The position numbers were made by a program, and so were the translations under genes. The notes under the pieces were generated by a model that saw nothing but the letters and a program-made list of their open reading frames with translations, was not told the DNA's origin and searched no databases. Below are positions 13,058 through 29,009 of a stretch of DNA of 32,000 nt, piece after piece. The stretch covers positions 1-32,000 of the forward strand of contig NZ_PQWO01000031.1 of the NCBI RefSeq assembly GCF_003231495.1, written 5' to 3'. The stretch is from Acaryochloris thomasi RCC1774 (GTDB taxonomy: Bacteria; Cyanobacteriota; Cyanobacteriia; Thermosynechococcales; Thermosynechococcaceae). Every line of letters begins with the position of its first letter. Within the stretch, counting starts at the first letter, position 1.

Positions 13058-15733
13058 TTACAGCCAGTTACCAATCAAAATAAAAGCAGCCCAAAAGCAG
13101 GGATGCCTATACCCTTTACCGGATTTAATCAGACTCAATTGTGCGGCCTGCAGGGCTTGAGCTTTGCTGAATTGAGGGTTGTTTAGGGCTTGATAAAACT
13201 GCTCTGAAAATTCAGCCGTGGCTTGGTCGTCAATAAACCAAAGGGAGGCGAGAGTACTTCTAGCTCCAGCTTGAATAGCACTCCCCGCTAGCCCCAAAGC
13301 CGCTCGATTATCGCCCACCGCAGTTTGACAAGCGGAAAGCATAAGCAGATCAATGGCCCTTTGGGGGCTGTTTACCTCCCGGAGCAGTTGTTCAAAATCA
13401 CTTAATGTCAGCTTGCTATTGTTACCCAATACCAAGAAGGTATTTTCAGGCTCAGGGCTGAATCGGGCGTGGGTTGCAATATGAATGATGGGGTAGTTTC
13501 TCCGACTCAACTCTATATAGAGGCGCTCACGAGTAAACGCATCATTAATCAACTTCTTACTTCTCGGAAACTGCGCTTCAATGCGCTCGACTTCTGAGGC
13601 CACAAAATGCAGCGCTGGGAAATATTGATTATCCACTTGGGCCGCCTCAGTTAAGCCTAAAATCATTGCCTTTAGAGAAGAATGTTTCAGAGGTTGTGGA
13701 TCGATGAGGTGTAAAGAGGGAGTTGTAGCAATGGCAAAGCGCTCAATCAAAAACTGCTGGCCATCGAACAAAGCCGCCATGGGAACCGTTCGGAACAGGC
13801 CATCTTGAACAAAGACGAGGGTGTTAACCTGAGCTTCGGTCAATGCGGTCTCAAAGGGCTGAATCAGCCATTGATATAGCTGTTCTGCAGACTGACGATT
13901 GGTGTAGGGTCCTAGGTTGCGTTCAAGGCCAACTCGGTAGTCATTAATTGTATTTTGTAAAGTTGATTTAGATTCTTGAATCCAGGCCAGTTGCCGCTGG
14001 CCGTTGGGCAGGGTCAAAATAACAGCGCTGCGCTGCGGCAAGATAATGGTGCTGAGGGTTGCAGTTCCTGCAGGACCGACCTGCTCGACGGGGGTAGCCG
14101 GTAAGGCGGTGAGTGCACAATCATTGCCAAAGTAATTTTGCAATTCCGCTAGCTTGAGGGAGTCCAGGGTGTTGAGAGCCTTTGTCAGTTGCTGGGTCTG
14201 GGCTGGGGCGGGAATGGATTCTGCCCCATTTTGCTGTAGATAAAGGGTCACCAATTCTCGATAAAGGGGTTCGATATTGTCACGAAAGTCAAACTGCAGG
14301 TCGCGATTGGCATTTAATATGTCTCTACGAATTTTCCCTAAGGTTGAGACGGCTCGTTGGTAGAATTTGATGGACTCTTCTGTTTGTCCATGGGCATTTA
14401 GAATCCGTCCTGTTTGCCATTCCCAAAGATAAAGACTGTCATTGCTGTCCAAATCGGCTGCGATCCAGCGAGCCTTTTGCGTGATTCTCAGGGCTTGCCG
14501 ATGGTCCTGGCGACATTCGTACCAGTGGCCCAGTTCGCCCAATGCAAAAGATTTAGAGCGGCGATCGCCCACTTGCTCAGCTGTTTTTAGAGCCTGTTTG
14601 AGCAGACTTCGAGCTTGGGAAGCCGTCTCTTGGGGATAACACTGTGGCCCTTCAGAGGATAGGGCTGGGTCCACAACTGAGCGATAAAGATGGGCCAAAT
14701 CAATTGCGGCAAAAACGGCTTCTTGGCTGACAGGTAAGCGAGGAATGAGGTTGAGAGCCTTCTTTTTGGCGGGTTCTACTTTTGGGTGAAATGCATCTTT
14801 GCGCCTGTAAATCGGGATTATTCTCAGCAGGGTCTGAACACTCGTGAGGGGCTTATCCTGCTGTTGAGAAAGGGACAAGCTTTGTTTGAAATAGCTTAGG
14901 GCTTGAGTTTCATTGTCCTGAGCTTTTTGGTGCAGTGCCGTCACCTTCCGAATGTTACCCTCTTGTCGTGAGCTGAGGGGAGAGGTTTGGTTAAGACGGC
15001 TTGCTGTCACACTTTGATTCTCAGAGCGGGCCTGACGGTAGTCAACTTCAGCTTGTGCGAGATAGGCATTTGCCAAACTGCTGAGCATCACTGTTTGGTA
15101 GTTCGGCAGCTTCGATGCCAGGGCTAATCCCTCCTCTAGGGAATCAATGGCCTGTTGATGATCTCCACGAGCAAGATACGCATTACCGATGCTGCCTAAG
15201 GCTGCCGCTTCACCCGCTGAATCTTTAGCGTGACGTGCAATATCGATGGCGCTGCCAGCCTGACAGTCTGGGGTAGGGTTACAGAGCACAGCAATGGCGC
15301 GTCGATGCTGTCCTAATTGGCTATAGGCTTGGGCCTGTTCTGTCAGTATACGTCCGACTTTTTGTGTGTTGCCGAGCTGACGTTGCAGGAGAATCACCTG
15401 CTGCCAGTGTTGTAAGACTTGAGCCGTTTGCCCCAGGTGACGATGGGCACGGGCCAGGTTTTCAAGCACGATGGCATTGTTTGCCAGGTCCCGTTGGGTT
15501 TGATAAAAGGGCAAAGCAGCTTGCCAACGTTCGATGGCTCCTTGATAATCTCGACTCTGGTAGAGATCGTATCCTTGCTGCACAAGCTGGCCGGCATTGT
15601 TGTTGGCCGTGTTCGTAGATCGTTGCTGAGTCGGCGCCCCCTGTCCCCCATGCGCCCAAAGCAGACTGAGGATCAAACTGGTGAGAAAGAGAACCTTCAG
15701 CAGAGGACGCGTACAGATTTTGCTTATCATCAT
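13058..15733 (-). CDS. Exported TPR-repeat CHAT-domain (caspase-like) protease
   Basis: 891 aa. The N-terminal signal peptide is MMISKICTRPLLKVLFLTSLILSLLWAHG. It contains multiple TPR-like units. The C-terminal CHAT domain has a candidate His/Cys dyad: IIHIATHARF (H755, codon 13469-13471) and LSACQTA (C802, codon 13328-13330). The family-typical end is HPCFWAAFILIGNWL. Confidence 0.85.
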   Translation of the reverse strand: MMISKICTRPLLKVLFLTSLILSLLWAHGGQGAPTQQRSTNTANNNAGQLVQQGYDLYQSRDYQGAIERWQAALPFYQTQRDLANNAIVLENLARAHRHLGQTAQVLQHWQQVILLQRQLGNTQKVGRILTEQAQAYSQLGQHRRAIAVLCNPTPDCQAGSAIDIARHAKDSAGEAAALGSIGNAYLARGDHQQAIDSLEEGLALASKLPNYQTVMLSSLANAYLAQAEVDYRQARSENQSVTASRLNQTSPLSSRQEGNIRKVTALHQKAQDNETQALSYFKQSLSLSQQQDKPLTSVQTLLRIIPIYRRKDAFHPKVEPAKKKALNLIPRLPVSQEAVFAAIDLAHLYRSVVDPALSSEGPQCYPQETASQARSLLKQALKTAEQVGDRRSKSFALGELGHWYECRQDHRQALRITQKARWIAADLDSNDSLYLWEWQTGRILNAHGQTEESIKFYQRAVSTLGKIRRDILNANRDLQFDFRDNIEPLYRELVTLYLQQNGAESIPAPAQTQQLTKALNTLDSLKLAELQNYFGNDCALTALPATPVEQVGPAGTATLSTIILPQRSAVILTLPNGQRQLAWIQESKSTLQNTINDYRVGLERNLGPYTNRQSAEQLYQWLIQPFETALTEAQVNTLVFVQDGLFRTVPMAALFDGQQFLIERFAIATTPSLHLIDPQPLKHSSLKAMILGLTEAAQVDNQYFPALHFVASEVERIEAQFPRSKKLINDAFTRERLYIELSRRNYPIIHIATHARFSPEPENTFLVLGNNSKLTLSDFEQLLREVNSPQRAIDLLMLSACQTAVGDNRAALGLAGSAIQAGARSTLASLWFIDDQATAEFSEQFYQALNNPQFSKAQALQAAQLSLIKSGKGYRHPCFWAAFILIGNWL

Positions 15734-15739
15734 GAACCT

Positions 15740-17479
15740 CTACAGGGGCTGATATTGCAAAGAGAAGTAGAAGCCTTGCTCCTGGAGGGAGTTACCCCGA
15801 TCATCAAGGTCCACTATGGGCAAGCCGTAGTCGAAACGTAGGCTCAGATCTGGGATTGGCTGCCAGCGGAGTCCGACACCGATGCCCACTAACGCAGATG
15901 GAGAGGGATCGGCACCAAAGTTGTTCCAACCTTTCCCGGCGTCAATGAAGGGCGATAGCTGCAAAACATTGGGGTTCGACGTCAGCGGAAACTGGCATTC
16001 CACCGTACCGAGGATGCCGTTATCGGTGAGGAGTTGATTGGAAGCGTAGCCCCGCACGGAACTAATTCCACCAATGCCAAACCGTTCTTGATTGAGCAGG
16101 GAATCGGGCGTCAGTTGGGTGCTGAGGCGACTGATGAGTAAAGCCCTTAAGGGTAACCGCTGCACATATTGAGCTTGTCCGACCCAGGAGAAGAAATTTG
16201 CGGATGGCCCCTCTACATTGACAGTGGCGTCGAAGACATCCACGCCCAAGTTGAATTGGGAACGAAGGGCAACAACGTTTCGGGGTTGCCGCTGAGTCCA
16301 TTCCTGTGAGAAGCGCAGCACTCGTGTTTTAGCGATTCCATCCGCATCAGGGCCTTGTGAAAATGGGAAAGGTTGATCTGCTAAAAAACTCTGATTCTGT
16401 TGCAGGTCAAAGGAGAGCCCCAGCGCAATCTCGGTGTTAGGAGTTTTGACAACCGGTTGTCGTAGCTCAAGGGACAGGCTTTCAAAGTCATTGCTGATAT
16501 CTAGAGGTCTGAGTTCAGAGGCAACAATTTCACTCGCGGCGTTACTGTATCTGACACCAATCGTACCGTCTCGGGCATTGATGGGCACAGTGTAGCCAAG
16601 GTCGTAAAGATTAAGTCCAGCGGTGATTGAAGTAGCGGCGGTGATGCGATCGCCCAATCCTAAGAAATTATCGTGAGCAAGATTGAGGCTACCTTGAATA
16701 GAGCCAATGGCTGGGCTGCGATAGTTATCGATACTGGCCCCCACATGGAATTCTCGGGCTTGTTCGACATTAACCAGTAAGGTGTTTAGACCGGGTGAAC
16801 TGCCGACGGTTAGTTCAGCATTCACACGCTTCAGGAGAGGATTTAGCTGCAGGAGCTGTAGTTTTTTCTCCAGCTCAGCTTGGTTTAAGGGGACTTTCGC
16901 GGCTGGGGAAATGCGGCGGCGAACATACTTTTTTCGCAGACGTTTGAGACCGATAATCTGAATTTCTTCGAGTTGTCCTTCAACAACTTGAATTTGAATG
17001 ATGCCATCACTGAGGTTTTGGTTGCTGGGAAGGAAGGCTCCGGAGGTAATGTAGCCGTTGTCGTTATAGAGTTTAGCGATCCGAGTGCGGAGGTCTAGGA
17101 GTTGTTCTAGGGTAACCGTTTGATTCTCCAGGGCTTGGACTTCAGCTTCAATTTCTTCTTGAAGTACCGTTGCACCAAGCACTTCGATGGTCTCAACAAA
17201 GAAGCTTGCTTCAGGTACCTCTGGTGATGAGGACTCTATTGGGGATGAAGGGGATATTGATTTAGGTAGGATCGGGGTGGTGGGTTTTGGAGCTGTGGGC
17301 AAGTCAATGGGGTTTGGGTCAATAGGTCTAACGGGGGGCAGGCTTTCTAGACTATTGGGTAGCGGGTTTGTTTGGCTCCAGACTGGGGCCAGCACGGGCG
17401 TTAAGGTCAAAAGGCTGGCTGTGAACAACAGGCTGCTCAAGCCAAGCTTTCGTGTTTTTTGGGTTGCTGAGCAGGGCAT
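15740..17479 (-). CDS. ShlB/FhaC/HecB-family two-partner-secretion outer-membrane transporter (TpsB, POTRA plus beta-barrel)
   Basis: 579 aa. It has a signal peptide, a Pro-rich linker, a POTRA-like region (IEVLGATVL...LLDLRTRIAKLYNDNGYITSGAFLP) and a beta-barrel ending FYFSLQYQPL. It starts 97 bp downstream of the TpsA gene, and its stop lies 6 bp upstream of the CHAT gene start. Confidence 0.85.
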   Translation of the reverse strand: MPCSATQKTRKLGLSSLLFTASLLTLTPVLAPVWSQTNPLPNSLESLPPVRPIDPNPIDLPTAPKPTTPILPKSISPSSPIESSSPEVPEASFFVETIEVLGATVLQEEIEAEVQALENQTVTLEQLLDLRTRIAKLYNDNGYITSGAFLPSNQNLSDGIIQIQVVEGQLEEIQIIGLKRLRKKYVRRRISPAAKVPLNQAELEKKLQLLQLNPLLKRVNAELTVGSSPGLNTLLVNVEQAREFHVGASIDNYRSPAIGSIQGSLNLAHDNFLGLGDRITAATSITAGLNLYDLGYTVPINARDGTIGVRYSNAASEIVASELRPLDISNDFESLSLELRQPVVKTPNTEIALGLSFDLQQNQSFLADQPFPFSQGPDADGIAKTRVLRFSQEWTQRQPRNVVALRSQFNLGVDVFDATVNVEGPSANFFSWVGQAQYVQRLPLRALLISRLSTQLTPDSLLNQERFGIGGISSVRGYASNQLLTDNGILGTVECQFPLTSNPNVLQLSPFIDAGKGWNNFGADPSPSALVGIGVGLRWQPIPDLSLRFDYGLPIVDLDDRGNSLQEQGFYFSLQYQPL

Positions 17480-17576
17480 AGAAGACTTCAGTTGGCTTGC
17501 TGCTAGGGAGTTTGTGGATTAATGAGAGACGTTTACCTGGGGGTCAGAATGAGGGGCCTCAGACTGATGAACAACA

Positions 17577-20435
17577 TTATTTGGAGCACTCTCGGCTGAT
17601 GACCAGTTTGCCGTCTGGCAGACGATACACGCTTTCGGGTTCAATGATGGGATCGCCGATTTGCCAGGGGGGATTGCCGTGCACTGGGGCCGTGTTTTTG
17701 TTAGTGGGGATAGTTTGGACGGTGCCGGTGGGAAGGGAGGGAGCGGCAGGGTGACCAGGGCGGGCGCGCAGGCTATCTGAACCGGTGATTATGAAGTTGC
17801 CTTGGGCGTTATTGGTGCGGACGATACAGCTATTAGCGAGCAGATCATTGGTATCGACTAGATTATCAGGGAGTTCTGTAAGGCTTTCTTCAATGGTGCT
17901 GTTATCTGGGGTGGTGATGATACCGGCAGAGATCTCGCCAGAAGCATTGATATCGACCCTGCCATTGCCATCTAGGTTGGTAAAGTTGACGATGTTGGGA
18001 GTGAAGGTGAAACTCTCGCCGATAAAGATAGGGGTGTTGAGCTCAATATTGCCACCACGACCATCTTGGGAAAAGGCGAGGATGTCACTATCACCGAAGG
18101 CAATGATGTATTTACCCGCTGATAAGGCAATATTCCCACCATCGCCAGTGCCTCTGACATCGGTCAAAATATTGCTGTTGTCAAGACGGATGGTGTTGGT
18201 GGCAGTGATACCAATCGTACCTCCAGTGGCTTGGCTTGCAGAAGTAGTGATACTGCTGTTCGACGCTTTGAGTAAGTTATGTAGATTGAGAGTGATATTG
18301 CCTGAATCAGCTTCCCCCTCAGAACTAGCACTAATTGCAGCTTGATCCTCTAGGGTCAGAGTATCCGCAGATACTTCGATGTTTCCCCCCACACCATTTG
18401 TTCCCTCTTCCGCACCGACTGAGATAAGACTATTTTCACCAGAAAGAGAAATTTCATCTTCTACAAAAATGGTGATAGCTCCTGCTGAACTGTTGCTGCC
18501 AGTAAGTGACGAGATTTTGCTACCATCCACTACAGAGAGTGTACTGGCCTCAATAAAGATTGTTCCAGCATTTCCTTCACCAAAAGTGCTAGCAGATAGT
18601 TGAGCCCCATCTTTGAGAACAAGTGACTGAGTTTTAACATTTACTTCACCCGCATTGCCTTGTCCCCGAGAGTTATTCTCACTGACGACTCCACTCCCCG
18701 CTAAGTTATTCAAACCCTCAAACAAGATAGATTCATTGGCAATTACTCTGACTGTTCCAGCATTGCCTCGACCAAAGGTGCTAGCAGAGAGGAAAGCCCC
18801 ATCCTTGAGTATAAGAGACTTGGTCTCTAGCTCTACTTCACCCGCATTTCCGCGTCCGCTAGTGTCTGAGGCTCTTGCTGCTGCGGCTCTACTTGCCCGC
18901 CCTAAGCTATCTTCTCCTTCAAACAAGACAGATTCATTGGCATATATTTTGACGGTGCCAGCGTCTCTTCCTCCGTTCGTACTAGCAGATAAAATTGCTC
19001 CATTTCTGAGAACAAGTGACTGGGTGGTAATATTAACCTCACCTGGATTCCCTTGCTCATCAGACGTTGTCTCACTAGTGACAGTGGCGCCACTTGGCGT
19101 AGGGCCCTCTGGTGTTTGATTACCATCTTCTCCCTCGAACAAAACAGATTCACTTGCGCGTACTGTTACTGTCCCAGCATTCCCTTCACCAAAAGCATTA
19201 GCCGATAGTTGAGCCCCATCTTTGAGAACAAGTGACTGGGTTTTAATATTGACTGCGCCTGCGTTTCCTTGTCCGACAGGACCAACTACGCTGGCTGCTC
19301 GACTTCCCCGTCCTTGACTATCCAACCCTTCGAGTAATACTGACTCAACAGCCTGTATTTTGACCGTGCCAGCATTGCCTCTACCAAAGGTGCTAGCAGA
19401 GAGAAAAGCTCCATTCTTAACTGTAAGAGAGTTGGCCACTACCTCCACTACACCAGCATTTCCCTGAGTACCAGGCAACACTGCGCTAGCGACTCTGGTA
19501 TTTTCTCCCTCAAGCAATACATAATCGCTTGCCTGTATTCTGACAGTGCCAGCATCCCGCTGACCAAAGTTACTCGCTTCTACTCGAGCCCCATCTGCTA
19601 GATCCACTTGATTCGCCACCAACGTTACAGACCCACCAGGTGCAACGATAGATCCTGTCTGTATAAGACTATCCCCTACCAGTCCCACAGATTGCAGCTC
19701 ATCAACCATCAAATTTCCCTCATTGATAATAGAGCCAGACTGCTGGGCTGCTTGCTCAAAAAATGAAGCCGCAGGACTCACCGACAGCAATTGACTCTGC
19801 CCTGGCTCTATTGCACTGAAAACCCCTTGTTCGCCTAGCTCGATCTCATCTGCAGTAGAGGCATAAAATGACCCCGCCAATTGCAAATCTGTATTGGGTC
19901 CAAACAAAAATCCATTGGGATTTAACAACCATAGATTGGCATCCCCTAAAACCCCCAACTGACCCAAAATATTGGAGGAATTACTGCCCGTCACCCGAGA
20001 AAGAATGTTACTTATACCTGTGGGATTCGCAAAGAAGACTCCGCGCCCTTCCCCAACATTGAATTCCTGAAAACTATGGAACAGGTTCCCACCGCGAACA
20101 GCACCACCCACAATCCGATCTGACTGACCATCAATTGGCGTCACAAAAGAGCTTTCGACTTGCAATGTTTGATCTGGCCTAACCTGTGCTCTAGCCTGAA
20201 GATTGCACACAGTGGTCATCACTGTCATAAACATCACAGCTCCACTGAATGTCCATAAGCATTGTTGAAACAGCCCTCCCTTGATCACCAAACCACTTTC
20301 ATTCACATAGGAAAGACTAAATCTTAATGGTCTACTTTTCTTAACTGAAACAGCCCAAATCTTGGAAGGCAGTATTTTCATTAGACTTCTTGCAATATCA
20401 TCATGCTGTGCTGTGTCGTACTGACCTATTCTCAC
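17577..20435 (-). CDS. Filamentous-hemagglutinin-N-terminal (TPS) domain exoprotein, beta-helical repeat protein (TpsA)
   Basis: Up to 952 aa. The TPS secretion domain is NPTGISNILSRVTG...LWLLNPNGFLFGPN. There are at least 11 GNAGTV/GNAGEV beta-helix units. The Cys-flanked C-terminal tail is NSCIVRT...DPIIEPESVYRLPDGKLVISREC. The start is uncertain: GTG at 20435 or ATG at 20381 (MKILPSK). Confidence 0.85.
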   Translation of the reverse strand: MRIGQYDTAQHDDIARSLMKILPSKIWAVSVKKSRPLRFSLSYVNESGLVIKGGLFQQCLWTFSGAVMFMTVMTTVCNLQARAQVRPDQTLQVESSFVTPIDGQSDRIVGGAVRGGNLFHSFQEFNVGEGRGVFFANPTGISNILSRVTGSNSSNILGQLGVLGDANLWLLNPNGFLFGPNTDLQLAGSFYASTADEIELGEQGVFSAIEPGQSQLLSVSPAASFFEQAAQQSGSIINEGNLMVDELQSVGLVGDSLIQTGSIVAPGGSVTLVANQVDLADGARVEASNFGQRDAGTVRIQASDYVLLEGENTRVASAVLPGTQGNAGVVEVVANSLTVKNGAFLSASTFGRGNAGTVKIQAVESVLLEGLDSQGRGSRAASVVGPVGQGNAGAVNIKTQSLVLKDGAQLSANAFGEGNAGTVTVRASESVLFEGEDGNQTPEGPTPSGATVTSETTSDEQGNPGEVNITTQSLVLRNGAILSASTNGGRDAGTVKIYANESVLFEGEDSLGRASRAAAARASDTSGRGNAGEVELETKSLILKDGAFLSASTFGRGNAGTVRVIANESILFEGLNNLAGSGVVSENNSRGQGNAGEVNVKTQSLVLKDGAQLSASTFGEGNAGTIFIEASTLSVVDGSKISSLTGSNSSAGAITIFVEDEISLSGENSLISVGAEEGTNGVGGNIEVSADTLTLEDQAAISASSEGEADSGNITLNLHNLLKASNSSITTSASQATGGTIGITATNTIRLDNSNILTDVRGTGDGGNIALSAGKYIIAFGDSDILAFSQDGRGGNIELNTPIFIGESFTFTPNIVNFTNLDGNGRVDINASGEISAGIITTPDNSTIEESLTELPDNLVDTNDLLANSCIVRTNNAQGNFIITGSDSLRARPGHPAAPSLPTGTVQTIPTNKNTAPVHGNPPWQIGDPIIEPESVYRLPDGKLVISRECSK
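18540..19460 (-). repeat. Intragenic higher-order DNA repeats within the TpsA gene (period about 610 bp)
   Basis: An exact 35-nt match GATAGTTGAGCCCCATCTTTGAGAACAAGTGACTG occurs at 18595-18629 and 19204-19238, with about 85-90% identity in the flanks. A second pair starts at 18757 and 19369 (CCAGCATTGCCTC.ACCAAAGGTGCTAGCAGAGAG). A third, more diverged copy lies near 18990-19040. Confidence 0.8.
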
Positions 20436-20608: not shown

Positions 20609-21747
20609 AATCCATAAATAATCTACCTTCCACTATGTCTGAGCCTGGTTCTAACGGAATCTGGGGTCTATCAGAATATGTACCTACTTTGGTCTTCAAG
20701 GATCTGATGCTTCTTTCACTGTAGAGTCTTTTAGCACTCTCTCAGCGAAGGAAAATATAGCAAGCATGGCAGCCTCAACTCGCGGAGATCACACGATCTG
20801 TCTACCCTTCGACAATGAAACTCAATATCGTGAGCTTGTGCAAGATGCTCTGGGCTTCAGACTCCATCTGAGTCAGACTTTGACTACTCACCCGGAACTA
20901 TTCCCTAAAGAGATGGAGGCAGGCTTTCGGTTCCATGATTTCATCTACTCCTTCAAACAAGATCTGACCCTGCGTCGCATCAAGCTGACTGCCACTGGAG
21001 ACATCTATCAGCTCCGACCGGATTTCATGATGCCCTACATGGTCGGTAAGACCCATGAAATGGAGAAAGCCCTTTACCTGTGCCGGTTTGCGGTTCCCTT
21101 CGATGCCATCGTCTATGTCTTAGGCCGCAACGCAATGTACTGGTATCGGGCTTACATCTCTCTGGGACGGCCTTCCATTGTCGGAACGACGATCAAAGAT
21201 CTCAAGCTGCTACCAAGAAACCTGGTTGTCGATGAAAAACATAGCTGGCTCAAAGGAGAGAAAGTCTTTCTACCCACCACTGTCGCCAACGGTTGTATCC
21301 TAGGTGTTAGTGTCACAGATTCAGCAAGTCCGAAAGCTCTGACAGAAGGCTGTCGCGAGTTTCACCAAGAAGCACTGAACCTAGATCCGGCCTATGCTCC
21401 CCACACTGTTAATCATGACGGCTGGCCCGCGACACAGACAGCAATGAAAGCGATCTTCCCCACCGTAACCTTGATCCTGTGCTTTCTCCATTCGGTGTTG
21501 AAGATACAAAAAAGCTGTCGTCGGACGCCAGAGATCTGGAAGCGCCTGACAGGAATGCTTTGGGCCGCGTATAAGCAACCCAATAAGACTCGATTTCAGA
21601 AGGGGTTGCGTCAATTACAAAAATGGACCAAAGAGAATGTCACTTCCCCGCACCTCCGCATATAAGTGTTCAAGGCCTGTCGTAAGGCGACGAAGTTTAA
21701 GGTGGCCTATGCCTATCCAAAAGCCTACCGAACCAGTAACGAAGTAG

Positions 21748-22942
21748 CAGGGTTATTTCATTCTAAATAAAGTGACGAGAACATCCAGCCCTTGTCCAGC
21801 TCTTCGTTGTGCCTGTGCCATATTGTCAAAGTCATTGTGACGATACAGGTTGAGCGCCAAATTACGTGCTAGAGCAAAGATGTTGGGTAGTGGCTGTACC
21901 CGTATTCGAGAATTGTCCTCGCCCTGAGTAACATCTCGAACATGATGGACCTTATTCTCCACATGCCAATAGTCCCGAATGCGTCGTGAAAATTGTTGAG
22001 CTGTTTCCTCTAGGGAGCTGATGTAATAGCGAGTTGTGGGCTTGTTGATGATCAGATATTTTCCTTTGAGCAGATGACGATAGCTAACGACTCGAATAAT
22101 AGTCTTCAGTCCAGCCCATTGCTGTGCCTCTGAAAAGAGTTCAATCGAACGGCAGATACTGACGCTGCGCCGTTCAACGCGACCATGTCCTCTCTCAACG
22201 CTGTCAACGCGCTCTTGGGGCTGAAAGTGCCGCTTGATGGCTTTGAAGAAGTTACCGTGATTACCTTTGACTGCTCCTAAATAGTGATTGCCTGAATCAA
22301 TGATTGCCTGACATGTTTTTTTGGGTGTTGAGCGCATCAAAAGCAAAGACGACGCCCCGTTGCGCTAAAGCCTGCAGCACAGGCGGAAAGGCTGTTATTT
22401 CATTGCTTTTCTTGTCCACTGGTTGAATCGGCAAAATCAGGCCGCGTTCGACGATATACACGGTGACCAATTGAATGGCCCGATGTGATTCACTCGTACT
22501 CGCCGGAGTCTCTACATTGTAAGAACCGCGCAACACCTTCCCCTCAAATGCTAGTGTTTCGCCAGACAATGGTTCAATCTCAAAGAAGCTGGCTAGACAA
22601 GCACTATAGGCTTTGTAATCGAGGTCTAACAACACTCGACGAATGGTGCTGTAGGACGGAAGCCGGTCTTTGGCTGGCTCAAATAAGGCCAACAGGTCGG
22701 CTCGATAGCTTTTAAGCCAATCACTGATGGCGATAAAGCCACGACAGCCTGCAGTAACCGATAGGGTGAACAAGGCTAAGCACAGAGGCTGGTTATGGCG
22801 ACGACCGGCTCCGCGACGGTGGTCGGGTAAATCTTTGAAGGCATCTATGATGGCTAAGGTGCTCATGGTTAAAGGAAAATTCGTCCACAACACCATGACT
22901 ATAAAGCCAGCTCATGAACTTGGCTAGAATGAAATAACCCTG
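21748..22942 (-). mobile_element. ISAs1-family insertion sequence (1195 bp)
   Basis: Perfect 18-bp inverted repeats: CAGGGTTATTTCATTCTA at 21748-21765 and its reverse complement at 22925-22942. It is flanked by the 10-bp direct target duplication AACGAAGTAG (21738-21747 and 22943-22952). Confidence 0.9.
21753..22896 (-). pseudogene. ISAs1-family (H-repeat-associated type) transposase split by a frameshift in a homopolymer
   Basis: The ORFs 22297-22896 (N-terminal, DLPDHRRGAGRRH motif) and 21753-22346 (C-terminal) overlap by 50 nt. The frame change maps to the A7 run (T7 on the plus strand, 22316-22322). The reading switches from DALNTQKNMSGNH* to ..TPKKTCQAIIDSGNHYLGAVKGN. Confidence 0.75.
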
Positions 22943-23312
22943 AACGAAGTAGACAGGTTGATGAATCATCAAAATCGTCAACTCTATTCTATGCAATACT
23001 TTCACGGGAAAATCGATTCAGCTCGTCAATCAATGAGAGCAATGGCTTTAGTGTGGAACTTTCATCCCTACGGAACCAAGACCAGAGATGAAGTAAAGGG
23101 GCGGCTCTCGCCATTTCAAGATCTCAATGGGTTTAGCTATCACGAAAACTGGCTGAACAACTTATCGATCAGTATGTCGATGAATGGCCGTAGTTAGGTG
23201 CTTTCAGGTGACCCCAGAAACCGTTAGAACGAGGTTTAGGTCAAGACTTATGCTGTTCTTCGCTAAGCTGGTTCAAGATTCCGAGCGCAACAATCCTTGG
23301 AAGCGTAATAAA

Positions 23313-23624
23313 TCAACTTGTTACTGATTCTACTTCAATATGCTTGAAGCTATTGAGAATAGATTCTGAATCGTAATTTTCGATGCCATGATATTCTCCT
23401 TGTCGATTTGGCACCCCCACCTCAATCCTCCCCCCATAGAAGCGATCACCCTGCGACTCCAAGCAAAACCCTCCGAACAACAGCCCCAGCCACAATCGTC
23501 CCAAAGATAACCCCAAGCCTTCCTGCAGCTCAACTAAAGACACCTGTTGAACATCATCATCCAGATACGCCCGGATCGCATCGACCCAATCCACCACGCC
23601 CTCTAATCCACTATTGCTCGACAA
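23313..23624 (-). CDS. Small protein paralogous to the C-terminal domain of the 213-aa acidic protein
   Basis: About 92-103 aa. WVDAIRAYL...LSLGRLWLGLLFGGFCLESQGDRFYGG aligns with WVDAIAKVL...LSIGRLWLGLLLGGFDLQQVGEFYSF of ORF 24149-24790. The start is uncertain: TTG at 23624, or GTG about 23594-23597 after GAGGG. Confidence 0.6.
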   Translation of the reverse strand: MSSNSGLEGVVDWVDAIRAYLDDDVQQVSLVELQEGLGLSLGRLWLGLLFGGFCLESQGDRFYGGRIEVGVPNRQGEYHGIENYDSESILNSFKHIEVESVTS

Positions 23625-24148
23625 ACCTCTAGACGCATGAACAATGGCTCTCGAATTCCAGCTTCATTTGTATTCATCGCTGGCAGATGACCAACAGGAG
23701 ACGAGTCCTCAAAGGATAATTGATGGTACAAAAGAATCTTTCCATCTTTCATCCACCCGACACGCTCACGAAAGGTGCGATAGCTTTTGTAGTCAAAGGT
23801 TCCGTCAATGGTGTTACCTGTTTCAACATATAGTCGCTTCTGAACAGTAAACCCAAACCGTCCTTGGCTGTGGGTCGCCCACATCTGTTCGATTCTATTT
23901 AGATCTTTGCAAGGAAAGCTCTCGAACTTCACTCTCGATAGGTAACCGTTGGGCGAAAGAAATCCACCGGAACGCCTTGGACCCACCTTATAAAATAGTT
24001 GCTTGGTCAACTGGTCAGCCTGACGCCAGTTACCACTGGCTAGATGCTTCTCTAATTGCTGATATTCAGGTTCATAGCGATTGCAGCCCCATATTCCCAA
24101 ACTCAAGAGTAGGATAAACGACAATCCATGACGATAGGGCCAATTCAC
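23603..24148 (-). CDS. GUN4-like domain protein, probable lipoprotein
   Basis: 181 aa. The signal/lipobox-like N-terminus is MNWPYRHGLSFILLLSLGIWGC. The GUN4-type pattern is GNWRQADQLT...FPCKDLNRIEQMWATHSQGRFGFTVQ. The GTG start directly abuts the stop of the upstream gene. Confidence 0.7.
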   Translation of the reverse strand: MNWPYRHGLSFILLLSLGIWGCNRYEPEYQQLEKHLASGNWRQADQLTKQLFYKVGPRRSGGFLSPNGYLSRVKFESFPCKDLNRIEQMWATHSQGRFGFTVQKRLYVETGNTIDGTFDYKSYRTFRERVGWMKDGKILLYHQLSFEDSSPVGHLPAMNTNEAGIREPLFMRLEVCRAIVD

Positions 24149-24790
24149 TTACTTCACCATGATGTCGAAACTATAAAACTCGCCAACTTGCTGCAAATCA
24201 AAGCCGCCTAGCAATAATCCTAACCAGAGTCGCCCGATTGATAGCTCCAACTTCTCTTTCAACTGAACAAGAACCAGTCCATCTTTTGCCTGCAGAACCT
24301 TTGCGATCGCATCCACCCAAGCCCCCACATCTTCTTCTTCGATCACAGCAAACACCTCTTCCGGCTCAGGCTCAGGCAAAGGATCACCTACGCCCAGCTC
24401 CTGCAACAAAGCTTCCTGATCATCAACCTCAGCAAAGAACTCTTCAGCTTTAGGAAAAGTCCGGCGAGTGGTCGGCTCCCGCTCAGCCACCAGCCCGTCA
24501 TCACAATCCATGTAACGACGCACCAAGCCGTCATCAATGTCATAGATTGGCCCTTCCAGGCTATGCGAGTCGTGCCAACCCTCCAGCAAGACATCAGCCC
24601 GCAAACCGTAATACTCTGAGATCTGCAAGAACACGTCTCCCGCGATCGCAAGCTGCTGAGCTGGGGGCAACTCATCCAGCTCCCAGATCAGATCCAAGCT
24701 GGGCAGCAAAGCTGAGACTGAACTCTCTTCAGGATCTTGCTCTGCCGTCTCAATCTGTAACTGTAGATCCAGCTCAAGTTGAAGCATCAT
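24149..24790 (-). CDS. Highly acidic hypothetical protein with a C-terminal domain shared with ORF 23313-23624
   Basis: 213 aa. A GAGGTGA SD precedes the start. It is rich in D/E and has an LPEPEPEE linker. The C-terminal ~60 aa domain is paralogous to the small downstream ORF. Confidence 0.65.
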   Translation of the reverse strand: MMLQLELDLQLQIETAEQDPEESSVSALLPSLDLIWELDELPPAQQLAIAGDVFLQISEYYGLRADVLLEGWHDSHSLEGPIYDIDDGLVRRYMDCDDGLVAEREPTTRRTFPKAEEFFAEVDDQEALLQELGVGDPLPEPEPEEVFAVIEEEDVGAWVDAIAKVLQAKDGLVLVQLKEKLELSIGRLWLGLLLGGFDLQQVGEFYSFDIMVK

Positions 24791-24795
24791 TCACC

Positions 24796-25275
24796 TCAAG
24801 GACACAGCGGACAGGGGCGCACTGGACACTCGCTCGGATGTATATCCATCTCATCTTCAAACTGCAGGAGCACGCCCCCCACCAAATCACCCGAGAAACT
24901 TTTGAGCACCCTCAGCGAATGCCGTGTCACATCTGCCTTTTTCCAGCCCAGCGTATGCACGGGTTCCTCAATCCTCACCCGCTCTTGGCCTACCCAGAGG
25001 TCAAACTGAATGGCATGGACCGGCGCATCCACTCGCTCACGATAGAAATAGCGGTAGGCCGCAGGTTTGATGGGAGGCTCCACCGTCTGCTCAGGAATGA
25101 CTTTTCCCGTCTCCACTGCATACAGATCGCGTCGTTCTCGATTCCGGCGATCGCGGCGGCGATAGGAAGCCCGACGCACATGGCACTTCTGCCCAACCCA
25201 GCACTCTTTTGCTTTGGCTACGTCAACGCCCTGCTTGGCACAGCGACGGCATTTCTCGTTGGCCTTCCTGGGCAT
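24796..25275 (-). CDS. Hypothetical Cys-cluster / Arg-rich protein (possible zinc-ribbon nucleic-acid binder)
   Basis: 159 aa. A GGAGGG SD precedes the ATG. The N-terminus has CRRC...C...C-H, followed by RRASYRRRDRRNRERR. The C-terminus is CPVRPCPLCP. It is the first gene of a four-gene cluster with gaps of 5 bp or less. Confidence 0.6.
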   Translation of the reverse strand: MPRKANEKCRRCAKQGVDVAKAKECWVGQKCHVRRASYRRRDRRNRERRDLYAVETGKVIPEQTVEPPIKPAAYRYFYRERVDAPVHAIQFDLWVGQERVRIEEPVHTLGWKKADVTRHSLRVLKSFSGDLVGGVLLQFEDEMDIHPSECPVRPCPLCP

Positions 25276-25332
25276 CGAACACCCTCCAGTAGGAAGTTAC
25301 AGAATCAAGCACAGGCTAACATGGCTTATTAG

Positions 25333-25362
25333 GCAAAGTATAGTCAAAGTTTGTCAAAGCCT
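25333..25362. promoter_or_regulatory. Three 10-bp-phased CAAAG repeats in the divergent intergenic region
   Basis: GCAAAGTATA GTCAAAGTTT GTCAAAGCCT lies between the start of the four-gene operon (25275) and the recombinase gene (25491). Confidence 0.35.
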
Positions 25363-25450
25363 TGATTATGACCGAGATCCATCAGCTTCGCTTATCATTT
25401 CCAGCCTCTACCGACATCAACTCACCACGACATCAGGTTTTAAGTACACT

Positions 25451-25477
25451 AGTTGGTAGTTGTACAAACTACCAACT
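25451..25477. promoter_or_regulatory. Perfect 11-bp-arm palindrome immediately upstream of the recombinase gene (operator or recombination core site candidate)
   Basis: AGTTGGTAGTT-GTACA-AACTACCAACT ends 13 bp before the recombinase ATG and sits directly upstream of its AGGTGAG SD. Confidence 0.45.
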
Positions 25478-25490
25478 CTTAGGTGAGATC

Positions 25491-26204
25491 ATGAAACCGA
25501 ATGATACTGGGCATCGGAGAGATCGGCAGGGACAGGCGACGGCCTTCAAAACCCCTGAACCCGTTCTGTTCTTGATCGATATGATTGAGGGTGACCAGAA
25601 TCAGTTGATGGCCCACTTTGCCTACTATGGCTGTGCTCGGATAAATGCGGTGACGTGGCTGCAGGCGGAAGATGTTCAGGGGGATATCATTCGCTTTCGC
25701 AAGGAGCACAGTAAGACAGCTGCTTATCACACGCTGAAGATGGCGGCGAGTTTGAAGCAGGTGTTGGAAGCCTATGATTTGCCGGAAAGGGGGTATCTGT
25801 TTCCGGCTAGAAGGGGAAATCGACCGAAGAAGCATTTCCGTCAGCGGTGGGTGGAGGGACAACGAGTCTCTGAGGTGAGCGGGAAGCGGGTTTGTCCAGT
25901 TAGGAGTACTCAAGGGTTTGATAAGGCTTTAGGAGTGGCTGTGAGACGTATATTAACGGCAGAGGACTCTGGGATTGATGAGGCGATCTCAAGGGTGCCT
26001 GAGGTGGCGAGGGTGGGCAGGCAAGCTTTCTTTGGGGTCAGCTCTCATTCGTTTAGGCGATCTATGCTGCAATTCTTATTTTATACAAAGGGGTGGGAAG
26101 CGCCTAAATGCATGGCAATCTCAGGGCACAAGAGTTTGGATGCTTTCTATCGGTATATTGCTTACGAAACCCAGGCGGCTCAGAGTGAATATGCTTTGAT
26201 CTGA
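25491..26204 (+). CDS. Short tyrosine recombinase / site-specific integrase (mostly catalytic domain)
   Basis: 237 aa from the ATG at 25491 (SD AGGTGAG). Catalytic residues fit: R in YYGCARINAV, HSFRRS (HxxR), SGHKS and YRYI (the nucleophile Tyr). The longer 25362 start in the ORF track lacks an RBS and runs through the palindrome. Confidence 0.75.
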   Translation: MKPNDTGHRRDRQGQATAFKTPEPVLFLIDMIEGDQNQLMAHFAYYGCARINAVTWLQAEDVQGDIIRFRKEHSKTAAYHTLKMAASLKQVLEAYDLPERGYLFPARRGNRPKKHFRQRWVEGQRVSEVSGKRVCPVRSTQGFDKALGVAVRRILTAEDSGIDEAISRVPEVARVGRQAFFGVSSHSFRRSMLQFLFYTKGWEAPKCMAISGHKSLDAFYRYIAYETQAAQSEYALI

Positions 26205-26386
26205 TTTGCTGAAATGCAAGGCTGGATTGAGGAGATCGCGGAGATGGATGAGTGCTCAGTTTAGTAATATTTAAGGTTGCAATTTCATATGCTTTGGCAA
26301 AATAATGAAATATTTTTCTGACATTCATTCAAAGTGTTACTTTAGTTCGTAATAAGCCTCTAATCTTTGATTATCCATATACAACA

Positions 26387-27004
26387 ATGCCTACAACAAT
26401 AGCAATTGTGAGCCGCAAAGGTGGAGTAGGCAAAAGCACACTCTGCTCCAATCTGGCAGTTGCTGCCCGTACATCCACAATTATTGACTGCGACGATCAA
26501 GCATCACTCGCGGACTGGGGAGATCGTCGCACAAGCAAGAATCCATCAGTCATTTCTGTTCCCGCAAAAAGAGCTACGGCTACTCTCAAAAAAATTAATA
26601 CCCGCTGGAATTTCATCGATACACCAGGGACACTAGACGCTAATGTGATTGAAGTTATGCAAGCGTCAGATTTTGTCTTAGTTGTGCTGCGATATGGACA
26701 ATTTGAGCTTGATTCCATTTCCACTACACTCTCTGCAGTCAAGTTAATTAACCGCCCTGCAGCAATTGCTTTGAACCTATTGCACCCCAATACGAACGCT
26801 AAAGCCCTGATAGAGAGTATTGAGGAAGCTCAATTGGGCTTTCCTATCTGCCCCGTGGCTATCTGCAACCGAGCTAACTTCCAAGCTGCTGCAATCGAAG
26901 GGCTAGGGGTGACTGAAGAATCAAAGGACACAGCCGCCGCTCAAGAAGTATCTGGCCTCTGGTCCTGGATGAAAAAGGAGATAAAGAATGCCTCGTCGAG
27001 CTGA
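26387..27004 (+). CDS. parA: Small ParA-family partition ATPase
   Basis: 205 aa. The deviant Walker A is SRKGGVGKST. It overlaps the downstream ParB-like gene by 17 bp. Confidence 0.8.
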   Translation: MPTTIAIVSRKGGVGKSTLCSNLAVAARTSTIIDCDDQASLADWGDRRTSKNPSVISVPAKRATATLKKINTRWNFIDTPGTLDANVIEVMQASDFVLVVLRYGQFELDSISTTLSAVKLINRPAAIALNLLHPNTNAKALIESIEEAQLGFPICPVAICNRANFQAAAIEGLGVTEESKDTAAAQEVSGLWSWMKKEIKNASSS

Positions 27005-27758
27005 TCTAAGTAAAGCCAAAACTAGGTCTTCAGATCCCGCAGTAGCTAAATCAATCCTTGAACAACAGACTCAAGACAACATATATATTCCATTGAACAA
27101 AATTGCCTCTAGACCCACTGGTGACACTAGAGGCCTAAATGATGGACATATATCAGAATTAGTAAATAGCATTTCAGTCATTGGCCTGATCACCCCATTA
27201 ACCATTGACAAGAAGCATCAATTATTAGCAGGTGCTCATCGGAAGGCAGCCTTACATAAGCTTTCCCAGAATAGTCCAAAAAGATACCACGAACTCTTCC
27301 CCGAGGGAGTCCCAGTCCGCATCATGGACATTGATTCTGACATTGACACTGTCAACGCGCTTCAGATAGAAGTAGAAGAAAACACTCAACGAAGAAACTA
27401 TACAGCATCTGAGATCAAAGACGCAGCTCGCAAGCTTGAAGAAGCTGGCTATGAGAAACTTCGCGGACGTCCTGCCCAAGGCCAAAAATCTCTTAATAGA
27501 GAGCTAATGTCTGTATTTCGACTAAGCAGAAGGCGTATCACAGATATTCTTAATGAAGAGAAAGAAGAAAAGATAAGTGCGCAGGGGTGCGCACTTATCA
27601 ATGAACTGAGAAACTACCTCAAAAAAACAGAGAAGATCTATGAGAGTATCGATCCTGAGGCTTCAAGCAAAGAGATTCAACGAGTGGAGAAAGACTTAGG
27701 AAAGCTTGTAATCAGCTTGAAGAAAGCTATAAAAAGTGAAGAGAATAGAACAGACTAA
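26988..27758 (+). CDS. ParB/Srx N-terminal-domain protein (partition or nuclease-like)
   Basis: 256 aa. The ParB N-domain pattern is LVNSISVIGLITPLTIDKKHQLLAGAHRKAA. It has a Lys/Glu-rich C-terminus and is coupled to parA. Confidence 0.65.
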   Translation: MPRRADLSKAKTRSSDPAVAKSILEQQTQDNIYIPLNKIASRPTGDTRGLNDGHISELVNSISVIGLITPLTIDKKHQLLAGAHRKAALHKLSQNSPKRYHELFPEGVPVRIMDIDSDIDTVNALQIEVEENTQRRNYTASEIKDAARKLEEAGYEKLRGRPAQGQKSLNRELMSVFRLSRRRITDILNEEKEEKISAQGCALINELRNYLKKTEKIYESIDPEASSKEIQRVEKDLGKLVISLKKAIKSEENRTD

Positions 27759-27819
27759 GCAAAGCATTTTGGATGCCAGTTATCAATGACTAGGCCAGCA
27801 CTGCAGATATCAAAATCTT

Positions 27820-28140
27820 TTACTCTTCCTTTCCCAAATAAACAGAGCGATGCTTTCTACCATCCCAATAGCGCAGATAGCGATAGGGTCCACAACCCCT
27901 GATATATTTCAGCTCGATGTAACCCTGCTGATTAAGGGGCCTTCCATACTCATCTCGCTCAGCTCCATTTGTATCACTGCTATCTGAATCCCGTTCTCTA
28001 AGTACAATCTCAAGCCCAGAGATTAAAGATCGCAAATCAGCATCAGAGAGCTTAGAAGCATCTTTAAGCAACTGCTGAATATTCGCCGTTTTCTTTGGAG
28101 ACTTCCGAGTCATTGTATTAGGGTACAATTTAACTTCCAT
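27820..28140 (-). CDS. Hypothetical small protein
   Basis: 106 aa, or about 97 aa from MTRKSPKK. The C-terminal motif is GYIELKYIRGCGPYRYLRYWDGRKHRSVYLGK. It is divergent from the PD-(D/E)XK gene. Confidence 0.5.
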   Translation of the reverse strand: MEVKLYPNTMTRKSPKKTANIQQLLKDASKLSDADLRSLISGLEIVLRERDSDSSDTNGAERDEYGRPLNQQGYIELKYIRGCGPYRYLRYWDGRKHRSVYLGKEE

Positions 28141-28220
28141 ATTTGTACCCTAACTTTCTGCATTCCTGCCCTTGAAGGTAAACAACGCGAGATAATACGA
28201 GTACCTTCTCTTTAAAGCCT

Positions 28221-29009
28221 ATGGCTTACCCCATCTCAGCAACTCGACTGAAGCTATACAAGAGTTGCCCCCAGTCCTACTACTTCCGCTATGAGCGGGG
28301 ACTAAAGGAACAGTCAGCCTTTGGCTCTCCTGCACTGGGCAAAGCTGTCCATGCAGCTCTCAAAGATGTCTACGAGCAATGGAACTATGCCTATCCCATT
28401 CCCAATCTCGAATGGTTCTCTCAGTGCTGGCAATCGCACACTGTTGACTTAAAAGCGAATCAAGTAGACGACGGTTGGCGGATGCTGCAGAAGTACTACG
28501 AAAGGTATGTTGAACCCTTACCCATGTTGAGAAAGCCATTAGGGGTAGAGAAGTCTATTAAGGGTTCTTTCCGAGTCGGTTACTACGAGTTTGTCATTAG
28601 GGGCCAATACGATCGTCTGGATTATGTCGAAGATGGCTTAGAGCTGATTGATTATAAGACCACAAAATTGGTTAGCCCACCGGATGCTGTGGATATCCAA
28701 TTGGGTCTCTACGATTTACTTCTCAAACAAACCTATCAGCAGGCTCTCCACAAGCTCAGTCTCATCTACCTACGGACGGGTGAGAAAGTCACCTATGAAG
28801 TTACTCCAGAGCATCGGAAGGAATCAAAGCGTTTAATCGAAAAGCTGGCGGTTAGCCTACAAAAAGAGGATGAATGGCGACCGAAGAAAGGAGAGCAGTG
28901 CGCTCGCTGTAGCTACGCCCGGTATTGCTCTGAAATGGAGGAGGTACCTGAACCACTACCAGTGACAGCCAGAAAACCTAAAGAGATGCAGCTGCTGCTG
29001 CCGTTTTGA
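28221..29009 (+). CDS. Cas4-like / RecB-family PD-(D/E)XK nuclease with a four-Cys (Fe-S type) signature
   Basis: 262 aa. The N-terminus is KLYKSCPQSYYFRY. The nuclease core is YDRLDYVEDGLELIDYKT (D...DxK). The C-terminal cluster is CARCSYARYC. Confidence 0.7.
   Translation: MAYPISATRLKLYKSCPQSYYFRYERGLKEQSAFGSPALGKAVHAALKDVYEQWNYAYPIPNLEWFSQCWQSHTVDLKANQVDDGWRMLQKYYERYVEPLPMLRKPLGVEKSIKGSFRVGYYEFVIRGQYDRLDYVEDGLELIDYKTTKLVSPPDAVDIQLGLYDLLLKQTYQQALHKLSLIYLRTGEKVTYEVTPEHRKESKRLIEKLAVSLQKEDEWRPKKGEQCARCSYARYCSEMEEVPEPLPVTARKPKEMQLLLPF

Follow-up and report, generated by a model that had tools for sequence, protein, structure and literature searches.

The window analysed here comprises the first 32,000 nucleotides (forward strand) of contig NZ_PQWO01000031.1 of the cyanobacterium Acaryochloris thomasi RCC1774. 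It contains two adjacent minus-strand genes, P1 and P2 (open reading frames ORF1 and ORF2; Table 1), which we describe, from comparisons of their sequences, as a conserved and co-inherited gene pair limited to cyanobacteria and carried mostly on large plasmids. The contig, 39.9 kb in length, is itself plasmid-like, and the locus bears the tags C1752_10378 to C1752_10382. The first-pass annotation, made from the DNA letters of the window, had taken the pair for part of a four-gene operon, probably mobile cargo, between an insertion sequence (IS) and a tyrosine recombinase gene. P1-P2 proved instead to be a conserved plasmid module, linked to a Xer-like recombinase in most lineages. We consider it possible, at a probability of roughly 0.4, that the two proteins form a DNA-binding heterocomplex that assists or controls a plasmid recombinase, for example in multimer resolution. 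No description of the pair was found in the literature searched.

All four minus-strand ORFs of the proposed operon were found where the first-pass annotation had placed them, with a 5-bp gap between P1 and P2, a direct abutment of P2 and P3 (the stop codon TAA followed at once by the start codon GTG) and a 22-bp overlap of P3 and P4. The good Shine-Dalgarno sequences reported for the first two ORFs were also present, GGAGG lying 7 nt 5′ of the P1 ATG and GAGG 4-7 nt 5′ of the P2 ATG (the NCBI start for P2 is one ATG later, giving 212 amino acids). P2 is indeed extremely acidic, with 48 aspartate or glutamate residues among 213, and P1 is basic (isoelectric points in Table 1). Between the window and its closest relative, locus L003 (amino acid identity of 80% for P1 and 67% for P2), the ratio of nonsynonymous to synonymous substitution rates (dN/dS) was 0.06 for P1 and 0.13 for P2, indicating purifying selection. 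Therefore, P1 and P2 are real genes, and the earlier proviso that they might be non-coding can be set aside. The gene order in L003 is ParA-ParB, a divergent gene for a 237-amino acid recombinase, P1-P2, PMSR and hydrolase genes, and then a TPS-ShlB-CHAT cluster; its homology with the window fades at the end of P2.

A tblastn search with P1 in PLSDB gave matches at 74 places on 66 cyanobacterial plasmids, usually one copy per plasmid, in hosts that include Nostoc, Acaryochloris, Calothrix, Pseudanabaena, Stanieria, Leptolyngbya, Chroococcidiopsis, Kovacikia and others. In A. marina MBIC11017, P1 was detected in this way on pREB1 to pREB7, and the copy on pREB8 was seen as P0041 and as the P2 match H96. 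Copies also occur on Mb-scale replicons, and paralogous copies on co-resident plasmids or within one genome are 83-98% identical. A scan of 185,579 genomes, one per species, yielded 182 relatives; the 80 kept for examination were all cyanobacterial, and about 70 of them had P1 immediately upstream of P2. A profile search with P1 returned 333 clusters at 90% identity (320 at 50%), with no Pfam domain and with named sources that were all cyanobacterial. P2 lies directly downstream of P1, in the same order, in every locus inspected. On the upstream side of P1, directly adjoining and on the same strand, we observed HicA-HicB genes in A. marina pREB1 (L001:6355-6778), a RES toxin gene in Stanieria (L008:4540-5001) and a DUF4058 gene in Chroococcidiopsis (L007:4213-4998), all of them separated from P1 by a small gap or overlapping it slightly.

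P1 and P2 also occur as natural single-chain fusions of 466-518 amino acids (P0146, P0158 and P0163), which fall into three clusters with less than 50% mutual identity. In each fusion, the zinc motif and basic helix of P1 come first, followed by a tandem pair of P1-type beta domains and by an entire P2. Because such fusions exist in three divergent lineages, we argue for P1 and P2 acting together as an obligate complex rather than as an antagonistic toxin-antitoxin pair. The interacting complex proposed in the first-pass annotation is thus supported for P1 and P2 by their constant adjacency, order and fusion, while its suggestion of a toxin/immunity-like system is disfavoured by the same fusions. 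An addiction pair, with the basic P1 as toxin and the acidic P2 as antitoxin, is accordingly an unlikely interpretation. The pair does share with toxin-first type II systems (HigBA, HicAB, MqsRA) a tight two-gene operon encoding a basic and then an acidic product; it is present in several copies per genome, and it often lies amid plasmid toxin-antitoxin modules (the HicAB and RES genes mentioned above, and VapBC nearby). P2 further combines a DNA-binding-type fold with a disordered linker, as in many antitoxins. However, besides being stably fused in several lineages, P1 and P2 are larger than typical components of such systems and match no toxin or antitoxin family in PADLOC, Pfam or NCBIfam. 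The invariant residues of P1 are nearly all zinc ligands or part of its basic helix, with no obvious catalytic set, and the strict operon coupling to an integrase in Nostocales is atypical of toxin-antitoxin pairs.

Motifs and predicted folds of P1 and P2

Searches of Pfam, NCBIfam, PHROG and PADLOC gave no match for P1, P2 or P4, and sequence-profile searches of PDB gave none for P1 or P2, in agreement with the earlier remark that the combination was not recognisable as any described system. An E ≤ 1 scan of every member of the P1 and P2 alignments returned ToxS, Transformer, bZIP_1 and HRDC, all rejected as low-complexity or basic-region noise; weak matches to the bZIP basic region were seen in nine P1 homologs, and the bZIP_1 matches of the same scan were among those classed as noise.

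The P1 motifs CRRC, RRASYRRRDRRNRERR and CPVRPCPLCP were all found in the sequence. The invariant residues in an alignment of 118 sequences are C9, C12, C25, C31, R35, H87, H107, G110, C150 and C155. From this invariance we read C9/C12/C25/C31 as a putative C4 zinc site and H87/H107/C150/C155 as a putative H2C2 site. The Arg-rich stretch and the CP-containing end of the first-pass annotation were therefore borne out, whereas its CxxC...C..H motif is replaced by the C4 and putative H2C2 sites. The AlphaFold2 model of P1 (predicted local distance difference test score, pLDDT, 88.6) has a short zinc-motif region, a long Arg-rich helix (residues 28-55) with the conserved pattern RRSxYRxR...N, and a small β3-α-β domain. 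A role of P1 as a nucleic-acid binder would fit the invariant zinc ligands and the conserved basic helix. In P0135, a metagenomic P1 homolog of 379 amino acids, one zinc motif and basic helix are followed by three tandem beta domains; the P1 beta domain is therefore a repeatable module.

The AlphaFold2 model of P2, built from 13 sequences, had a pLDDT of 65.7 and is made up of an N-terminal three-helix domain (residues 1-74), a disordered acidic linker (about 79-150) and a C-terminal winged-helix domain that contains an invariant WLGLLLGGF...FY motif. Foldseek searches with the models of both proteins, a check suggested together with the first-pass annotation, gave no significant match for either. 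The top PDB matches of P2 were all winged-helix proteins with a local root-mean-square deviation of 2-3 Å, yet their E values exceeded 0.6. The third helix of the winged-helix domain, usually the DNA reader, is the WLGLLLGGF segment. Since this helix is invariant and almost entirely hydrophobic, the domain is probably a protein-contact surface rather than a reader of DNA.

The three-part layout and the size of P2 match those of ScpA, which raises the alternative that P2 is a highly diverged kleisin-like protein (ScpA/Rad21) with P1 as its partner, linking plasmid DNA to, or interfering with, the host SMC. We regard this as very improbable. The N-terminus of the Stanieria P2 (residues 4-67) matched Pfam Rad21_Rec8_N with E = 1.6e-4 and 22.3 bits (gathering cutoff 23.1), a relaxed hhalign run aligned P2 collinearly over its full length to a 10-sequence ScpA profile (ScpA profiles were built from PDB-verified and plasmid-record sequences), and the fused forms hold two P1-type partner domains per P2, as in ScpA-ScpB. 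However, the hhalign probability was only 0.5-0.7%, and a kleisin Pfam match was obtained for only one of 30 P2 members, below the cutoff. No kleisin was among the top 50 Foldseek matches, PDB sequence searches did not return ScpA, and the winged helix at the C-terminus of P2 is of a generic kind. P1, unlike ScpB, does not consist of tandem winged helices, and the gene clusters within 10 kb of P1-P2 include no recurrent SMC-like gene. Homology of P2 with kleisins is therefore not claimed, the hhalign probability being below 1% and statistical support lacking. An extension of the same idea, which we hold to be just as improbable, would make P1-P2 a cyanobacteria-specific plasmid machine, with P2 as a kleisin-like bridge having SMC-binding termini and P1 as a zinc protein of new fold tethering it to plasmid DNA. 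Such a machine might, with the same very low probability, allow large plasmids to enlist host SMC complexes or escape them, acting together with the Xer-like recombinase.

Linkage to a Xer-like recombinase

Linkage was counted in 70 loci whose sequence extends 1.1 kb or more upstream of P1. In 41 of these, P1 directly follows a same-strand gene for a tyrosine recombinase of about 340 amino acids, the two being typically 3 nt apart, and a further 15 have a recombinase gene no more than 4 kb from P1. The linked integrase consists of a SAM-like N-terminal domain and a catalytic domain; XerD, XerC and XerA match it best in NCBIfam, and XerA and XerD in PDB. It is carried by 71 plasmids, as a single copy in most of them. 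P1-P2 is thus consistently linked to a single-copy Xer-like recombinase on plasmids, as would suit an accessory factor. When coordinates were cross-matched between the integrase and P1 plasmid listings, P1 was within about 700 bp of the integrase in nearly all those listed Nostocales plasmids whose integrase shares 78% or more identity with that of pCC7120alpha (Nostoc PCC 7120; products of the three genes WP_010999636, WP_010999637 and WP_010999638); the exceptions were NZ_CP117772.1, where the two are about 570 kb apart, and NZ_AP023442.1, with no listed P1 row.

Xer recombination at the plasmid sites cer and psi needs accessory proteins. In the scheme that we favour, P1 would bind nucleic acid through its zinc motif and conserved Arg-rich helix, and P2 would bind P1, its hydrophobic winged helix probably forming the contact surface. 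The complex would then bind near the recombinase gene, where the heptamers and the palindrome between P1 and the recombinase gene of the window, described below, are candidate sites. Once bound, P1-P2 may serve site-specific recombination as an accessory or a controlling factor, so that large multicopy plasmids stay monomeric. The likeness to the cer and psi systems, with their accessory proteins ArgR, PepA and ArcA, lies in the combination of a Xer-type recombinase with extra non-catalytic proteins on multicopy plasmids. Here, however, the recombinase and the candidate accessory proteins are both plasmid-encoded, often in one operon, and neither P1 nor P2 is related to ArgR, PepA or ArcA by sequence or fold. 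A further difference is that the proposed link of the cyanobacterial pair to its recombinase is deduced from the neighbourhood of the genes.

Several points weigh against this scheme. Fourteen of the 70 loci have no recombinase within 4 kb, and on a complete 44-kb plasmid that carries P1-P2 (flanked by transposases and 13 kb from parA) no tyrosine recombinase could be detected at all. A search beside the Nostocales operon gave no conserved recombination site. The recombinase encoded in the window belongs to a different, short subfamily that is 15-21% identical to the usual Xer-like one, so a strict specificity between P1-P2 and its recombinase is not possible. The best Foldseek matches of the P1 model were not significant, with E = 0.15 in PDB and E = 0.02 in BFVD (an RNase-H-like leaning of these weak matches was not taken as evidence). 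Well-studied resolution systems based on plasmid-encoded tyrosine recombinases, Cre/loxP and ResD/rfsF among them, are not known to need dedicated accessory genes. Finally, the functional tie of P1-P2 to the recombinase is drawn from gene linkage, and the DNA sites named for it are candidates.

The arrangement also invites comparison with lambda Int/Xis, in which small proteins, one of them basic and likely DNA-binding, are likewise found beside a tyrosine recombinase. In contrast to that system, P1-P2 matches no excisionase or HTH_17-type family, the linked recombinase is of the simple Xer type with no arm-binding domain, neither att-like repeats nor a tRNA target surrounds the pair, and the pair also occurs with no recombinase nearby.

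The short recombinase of the window is divergent from P1. It gave a partial match to Pfam Phage_integrase (1e-4) and a match to the PHROG integrase family (1e-12), and its catalytic R/H-x-x-R/H/Y residues align with those of other recombinases. Its start is most likely the ATG at 25491, which gives 237 amino acids as in the L003 homolog; a TTG at 25362 is less likely. The two homologs are 88% identical, with a dN/dS of 0.04. The intergenic region between P1 and the recombinase gene contains three direct heptamers, GGCAAAG, GTCAAAG and GTCAAAG (consensus GNCAAAG), at 25332-25359 with a spacing of 10-11 bp, and a perfect 11-5-11 palindrome, AGTTGGTAGTT-N5-AACTACCAACT, at 25451-25477, which is unique in the window and lies 14 bp before the recombinase ATG. 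Heptamers and palindrome are both conserved in L003, whereas the surrounding intergenic sequence diverges. They are a candidate operator or recombination site.

An operator would suit a different interpretation, namely that P1-P2 is an autoregulating pair of plasmid transcriptional regulators, with P1 as DNA binder and the acidic P2 as modulator, that has no direct role in recombination and may also control neighbouring maintenance genes. The three conserved heptamers overlap the divergent promoters of P1 and the recombinase gene, the zinc motif and basic helix of P1 and the basic/acidic pairing fit a binder with its modulator, and the pair persists in the 14 loci with no nearby recombinase. 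We nevertheless find this interpretation doubtful; it leaves the very tight coupling to the integrase in Nostocales (the 3-nt gap) unexplained, and the putative recognition helix of P2 is the almost entirely hydrophobic WLGLLLGGF.

Among 23 Nostocales loci, a 2.4-kb block consisting of the integrase gene, P1 and P2 has 80-89% nucleotide identity, while both flanks are unalignable. A block so sharply bounded, of which several near-identical copies occur per genome and whose P1-P2 part is flanked by transposases in one plasmid, could be a small mobile or integrative cassette spreading among plasmids, with P1-P2 as directionality or targeting proteins. This seems improbable, however. The block begins at the start codon of the integrase gene and ends with the stop codon of P2, conserved repeats of a terminal or att-like type were not seen, 45 loci had no tRNA gene within 10 kb, and the block is normally present as a single copy per plasmid.

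Few replication proteins are known for cyanobacterial plasmids (PMC10899382), and the known Rep proteins account for only some of these plasmids (PMC10899382). P1-P2 might therefore be taken for the replication initiator of large plasmids, or for its direct controller. The pair is usually present once per large plasmid, P2 shares a winged-helix domain with iteron-binding initiators, no recognisable Rep gene was found in the window, and the pair lies beside parAB in the window, L003, pCC7120alpha, Chroococcidiopsis and Pseudanabaena. We judge this reading to be quite unlikely, because co-resident copies are 83-98% identical, which is hard to square with incompatibility determinants, because no iteron array was found in 22900-28300 beyond the three heptamers, and because ParA or ParB lies within 10 kb in only six of 54 larger loci. 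The copies on Mb-scale replicons, and the 44-kb plasmid with its distant parA and transposase-flanked pair, point the same way. Proximity to parAB, although found in several lineages, was accordingly rejected as a general rule. A relationship to CyRepA or CyRepX was rejected as well, both being large helicase-like proteins unrelated to P1 or P2.

The maintenance of plasmids of 50-500 kb in polyploid cyanobacterial cells is poorly understood, and integrase-P1-P2 is among the few gene sets common to dozens of large plasmids. The module spans Nostocales, Acaryochloris, Leptolyngbya, Pseudanabaena, Stanieria and Chroococcidiopsis and is unannotated in databases. Should P1 and P2 be accessory factors, they would represent a new class of accessory proteins for Xer-type recombinases, with P1 having no detectable structural relatives, and could be a useful part for stable cyanobacterial vectors. 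Whatever their role, P1 and P2 are genuine genes that occur widely on plasmids as a pair, are unannotated and have a Xer-like recombinase linked to them.

Two further elements recur around the Nostocales copies. A palindromic element of 29-32 bp, CCAACATGC...GCGATCGCATGTTGG, was found 0.15-7.5 kb upstream of the Nostoc integrase in L016, L023, L024, L043, L056, L058 and 10 other Nostoc loci. It contains GCGATCGC, the HIP1 octamer that is abundant in cyanobacteria. The element was dropped as a recombination site on account of this octamer and of its variable distance, and since it contains HIP1 it is probably a dispersed repeat. A convergent ORF of about 324 amino acids has its centre about 2.3 kb downstream of the P2 midpoint in Nostocales (L051:2209-3483 and 20 other loci). 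It overlaps a same-strand ORF of 156 amino acids and gave no Pfam or PDB match; its identification as ParM was wrong.

The GUN4-domain protein P3 and the P2-like P4

P3 and P4, the remaining ORFs of the proposed four-gene system, are from the sequence comparisons lineage-specific additions in A. thomasi, lying outside the conserved module. The four-gene system itself did not hold up. L003, despite its 80% identical P1, has no GUN4 gene, no P4 and no IS, unrelated genes following P1-P2 there, and among about 90 other loci none has a GUN4 or P4 gene adjoining the pair. At 90% identity, the clusters of P3 and of P4 hold only the A. thomasi copies.

P3 matched Pfam GUN4 (PF05419) over residues 27-160 with E = 1.4e-31 and 110 bits (cutoff 29.2), which confirms the GUN4 domain assigned in the first-pass annotation, and the C-terminal domain of the PADLOC PD-T4-6 model with 4e-30. 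The lipoprotein signal assigned along with it is plausible, not canonical: the hydrophobic leader MNWPYRHGLSFILLLSLGIWGC ends in IWGC, in which W at position -2 departs by one residue from the lipobox [LVI][ASTVI][GAS]C. Although its core domain strongly matches that of GUN4/Ycf53, P3 lacks the N-terminal helical domain of the cyanobacterial Ycf53, only 26 residues of hydrophobic leader preceding the core, and it differs further in the secretion- or lipoprotein-like nature of this leader and in being plasmid-borne. P3 rather resembles the stand-alone or fused GUN4-like domains of cyanobacterial plasmids and the C-terminus of PD-T4-6. Cyanobacterial plasmids commonly carry GUN4-domain genes, in which the domain is often joined to a kinase or a NACHT NTPase; where such a plasmid also holds P1-P2, the GUN4 gene is far from the pair. 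The coupling of the complex to a tetrapyrrole-binding lipoprotein, as first proposed, is not supported by the loci examined, and no tetrapyrrole link is to be inferred because the GUN4 gene and the small paralog P4 are local accretions. The annotation thus loses a misleading lead.

P4 had been described as a small paralog duplicating the C-terminal domain of P2 with about half of the residues identical. The identity holds (21 of 40 residues by BLASTP, the first 60 or so residues of P4 being those that match), but P4 looks like a fragment of a P2 paralog rather than a separate component. It joins the winged-helix domain from the C-terminus of a P2 paralog to some 30 amino acids of unrelated tail, has no P2-like sequence upstream of it in frame, and carries L194F at an otherwise invariant column of the family. 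Its closest relative is the paralog P0013 (C1752_08437), with about 66% identity by eye over 64 amino acids (LESQGDRFYGGRIEVGV versus LESQGDRFYGGRIVVGV), and tblastn of P4 against plasmids gave no match. P4 is probably the remnant of a P2 paralog, left by a rearrangement beside the neighbouring IS cluster. Solo or truncated P2-like genes with no adjacent P1 were also observed in A. marina pREB6 (L002:761-1384) and, as a second truncated fragment in the A. thomasi genome, in P0018 (C1752_12223); partial P2 copies like P4 therefore recur in Acaryochloris. The A. thomasi paralog loci also include C1752_08966. Just downstream of P4, a stretch of about 235 bp (23000-23234) shares 78-84% identity with sequences from six other Acaryochloris plasmids and is probably a dispersed repeat or an IS end.

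Surroundings of the module in the window

Table 1 Features of the A. thomasi RCC1774 window (positions are those of the 32,000-nt stretch).
Feature	Position	Strand	Remarks
IS21-type pair	157-2441		IstB-like ATPase and Mu-type transposase; left end of window
RecA	9184-10245		Full-length gene
RNB-family exoribonuclease	10988-12859		With dsRNA-binding domain
TPS-ShlB-CHAT-TPR cluster	13058-20435		TPS filamentous-haemagglutinin-like
IS cluster	20766-22896		Next to P4
P4 (ORF4)	23313-23624	minus	103 aa, TTG start; GenBank version 93 aa
P3 (ORF3)	23603-24148	minus	181 aa, GTG start; GUN4 domain
P2 (ORF2)	24149-24790	minus	213 aa, isoelectric point 4.05; three-part architecture
P1 (ORF1)	24796-25275	minus	159 aa, basic, isoelectric point 9.5; two putative zinc sites
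Divergent control region P1/recombinase	25276-25490		Heptamers and palindrome
Short tyrosine recombinase	25491-26204	plus	237 aa; divergent from P1
ParA	26387-27004	plus	Pfam/NCBIfam matches
ParB-like protein	26988-27758	plus	Pfam/NCBIfam matches
106-aa ORF	27820-28140		Between ParB-like and Cas4-like genes; unannotated
Cas4-like PD-(D/E)XK nuclease	28221-29009		Beyond the ParB-like gene

The ParA and ParB-like genes are plasmid partition genes that adjoin the module, and the same arrangement is found in L003. A DUF4351 protein is also encoded in the window, and no CRISPR-Cas genes were found near the Cas4-like nuclease gene. Of 89 loci, 15 had TPS homologs and 11 had CHAT proteins within 10 kb of P1-P2.

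Two inverted repeats lie on the ParB side of the module. A perfect palindrome with 12-bp arms, GATAAGTGCGCA-N4-TGCGCACTTATC, occupies 27572-27599 within the 3′ part of the ParB-like gene and might function as a centromere-like site. In the gap that precedes the Cas4-like nuclease gene, an inverted repeat with perfect 11-bp arms and a spacer of 14 bp (28118-28153) spans the start of the 106-amino acid ORF.

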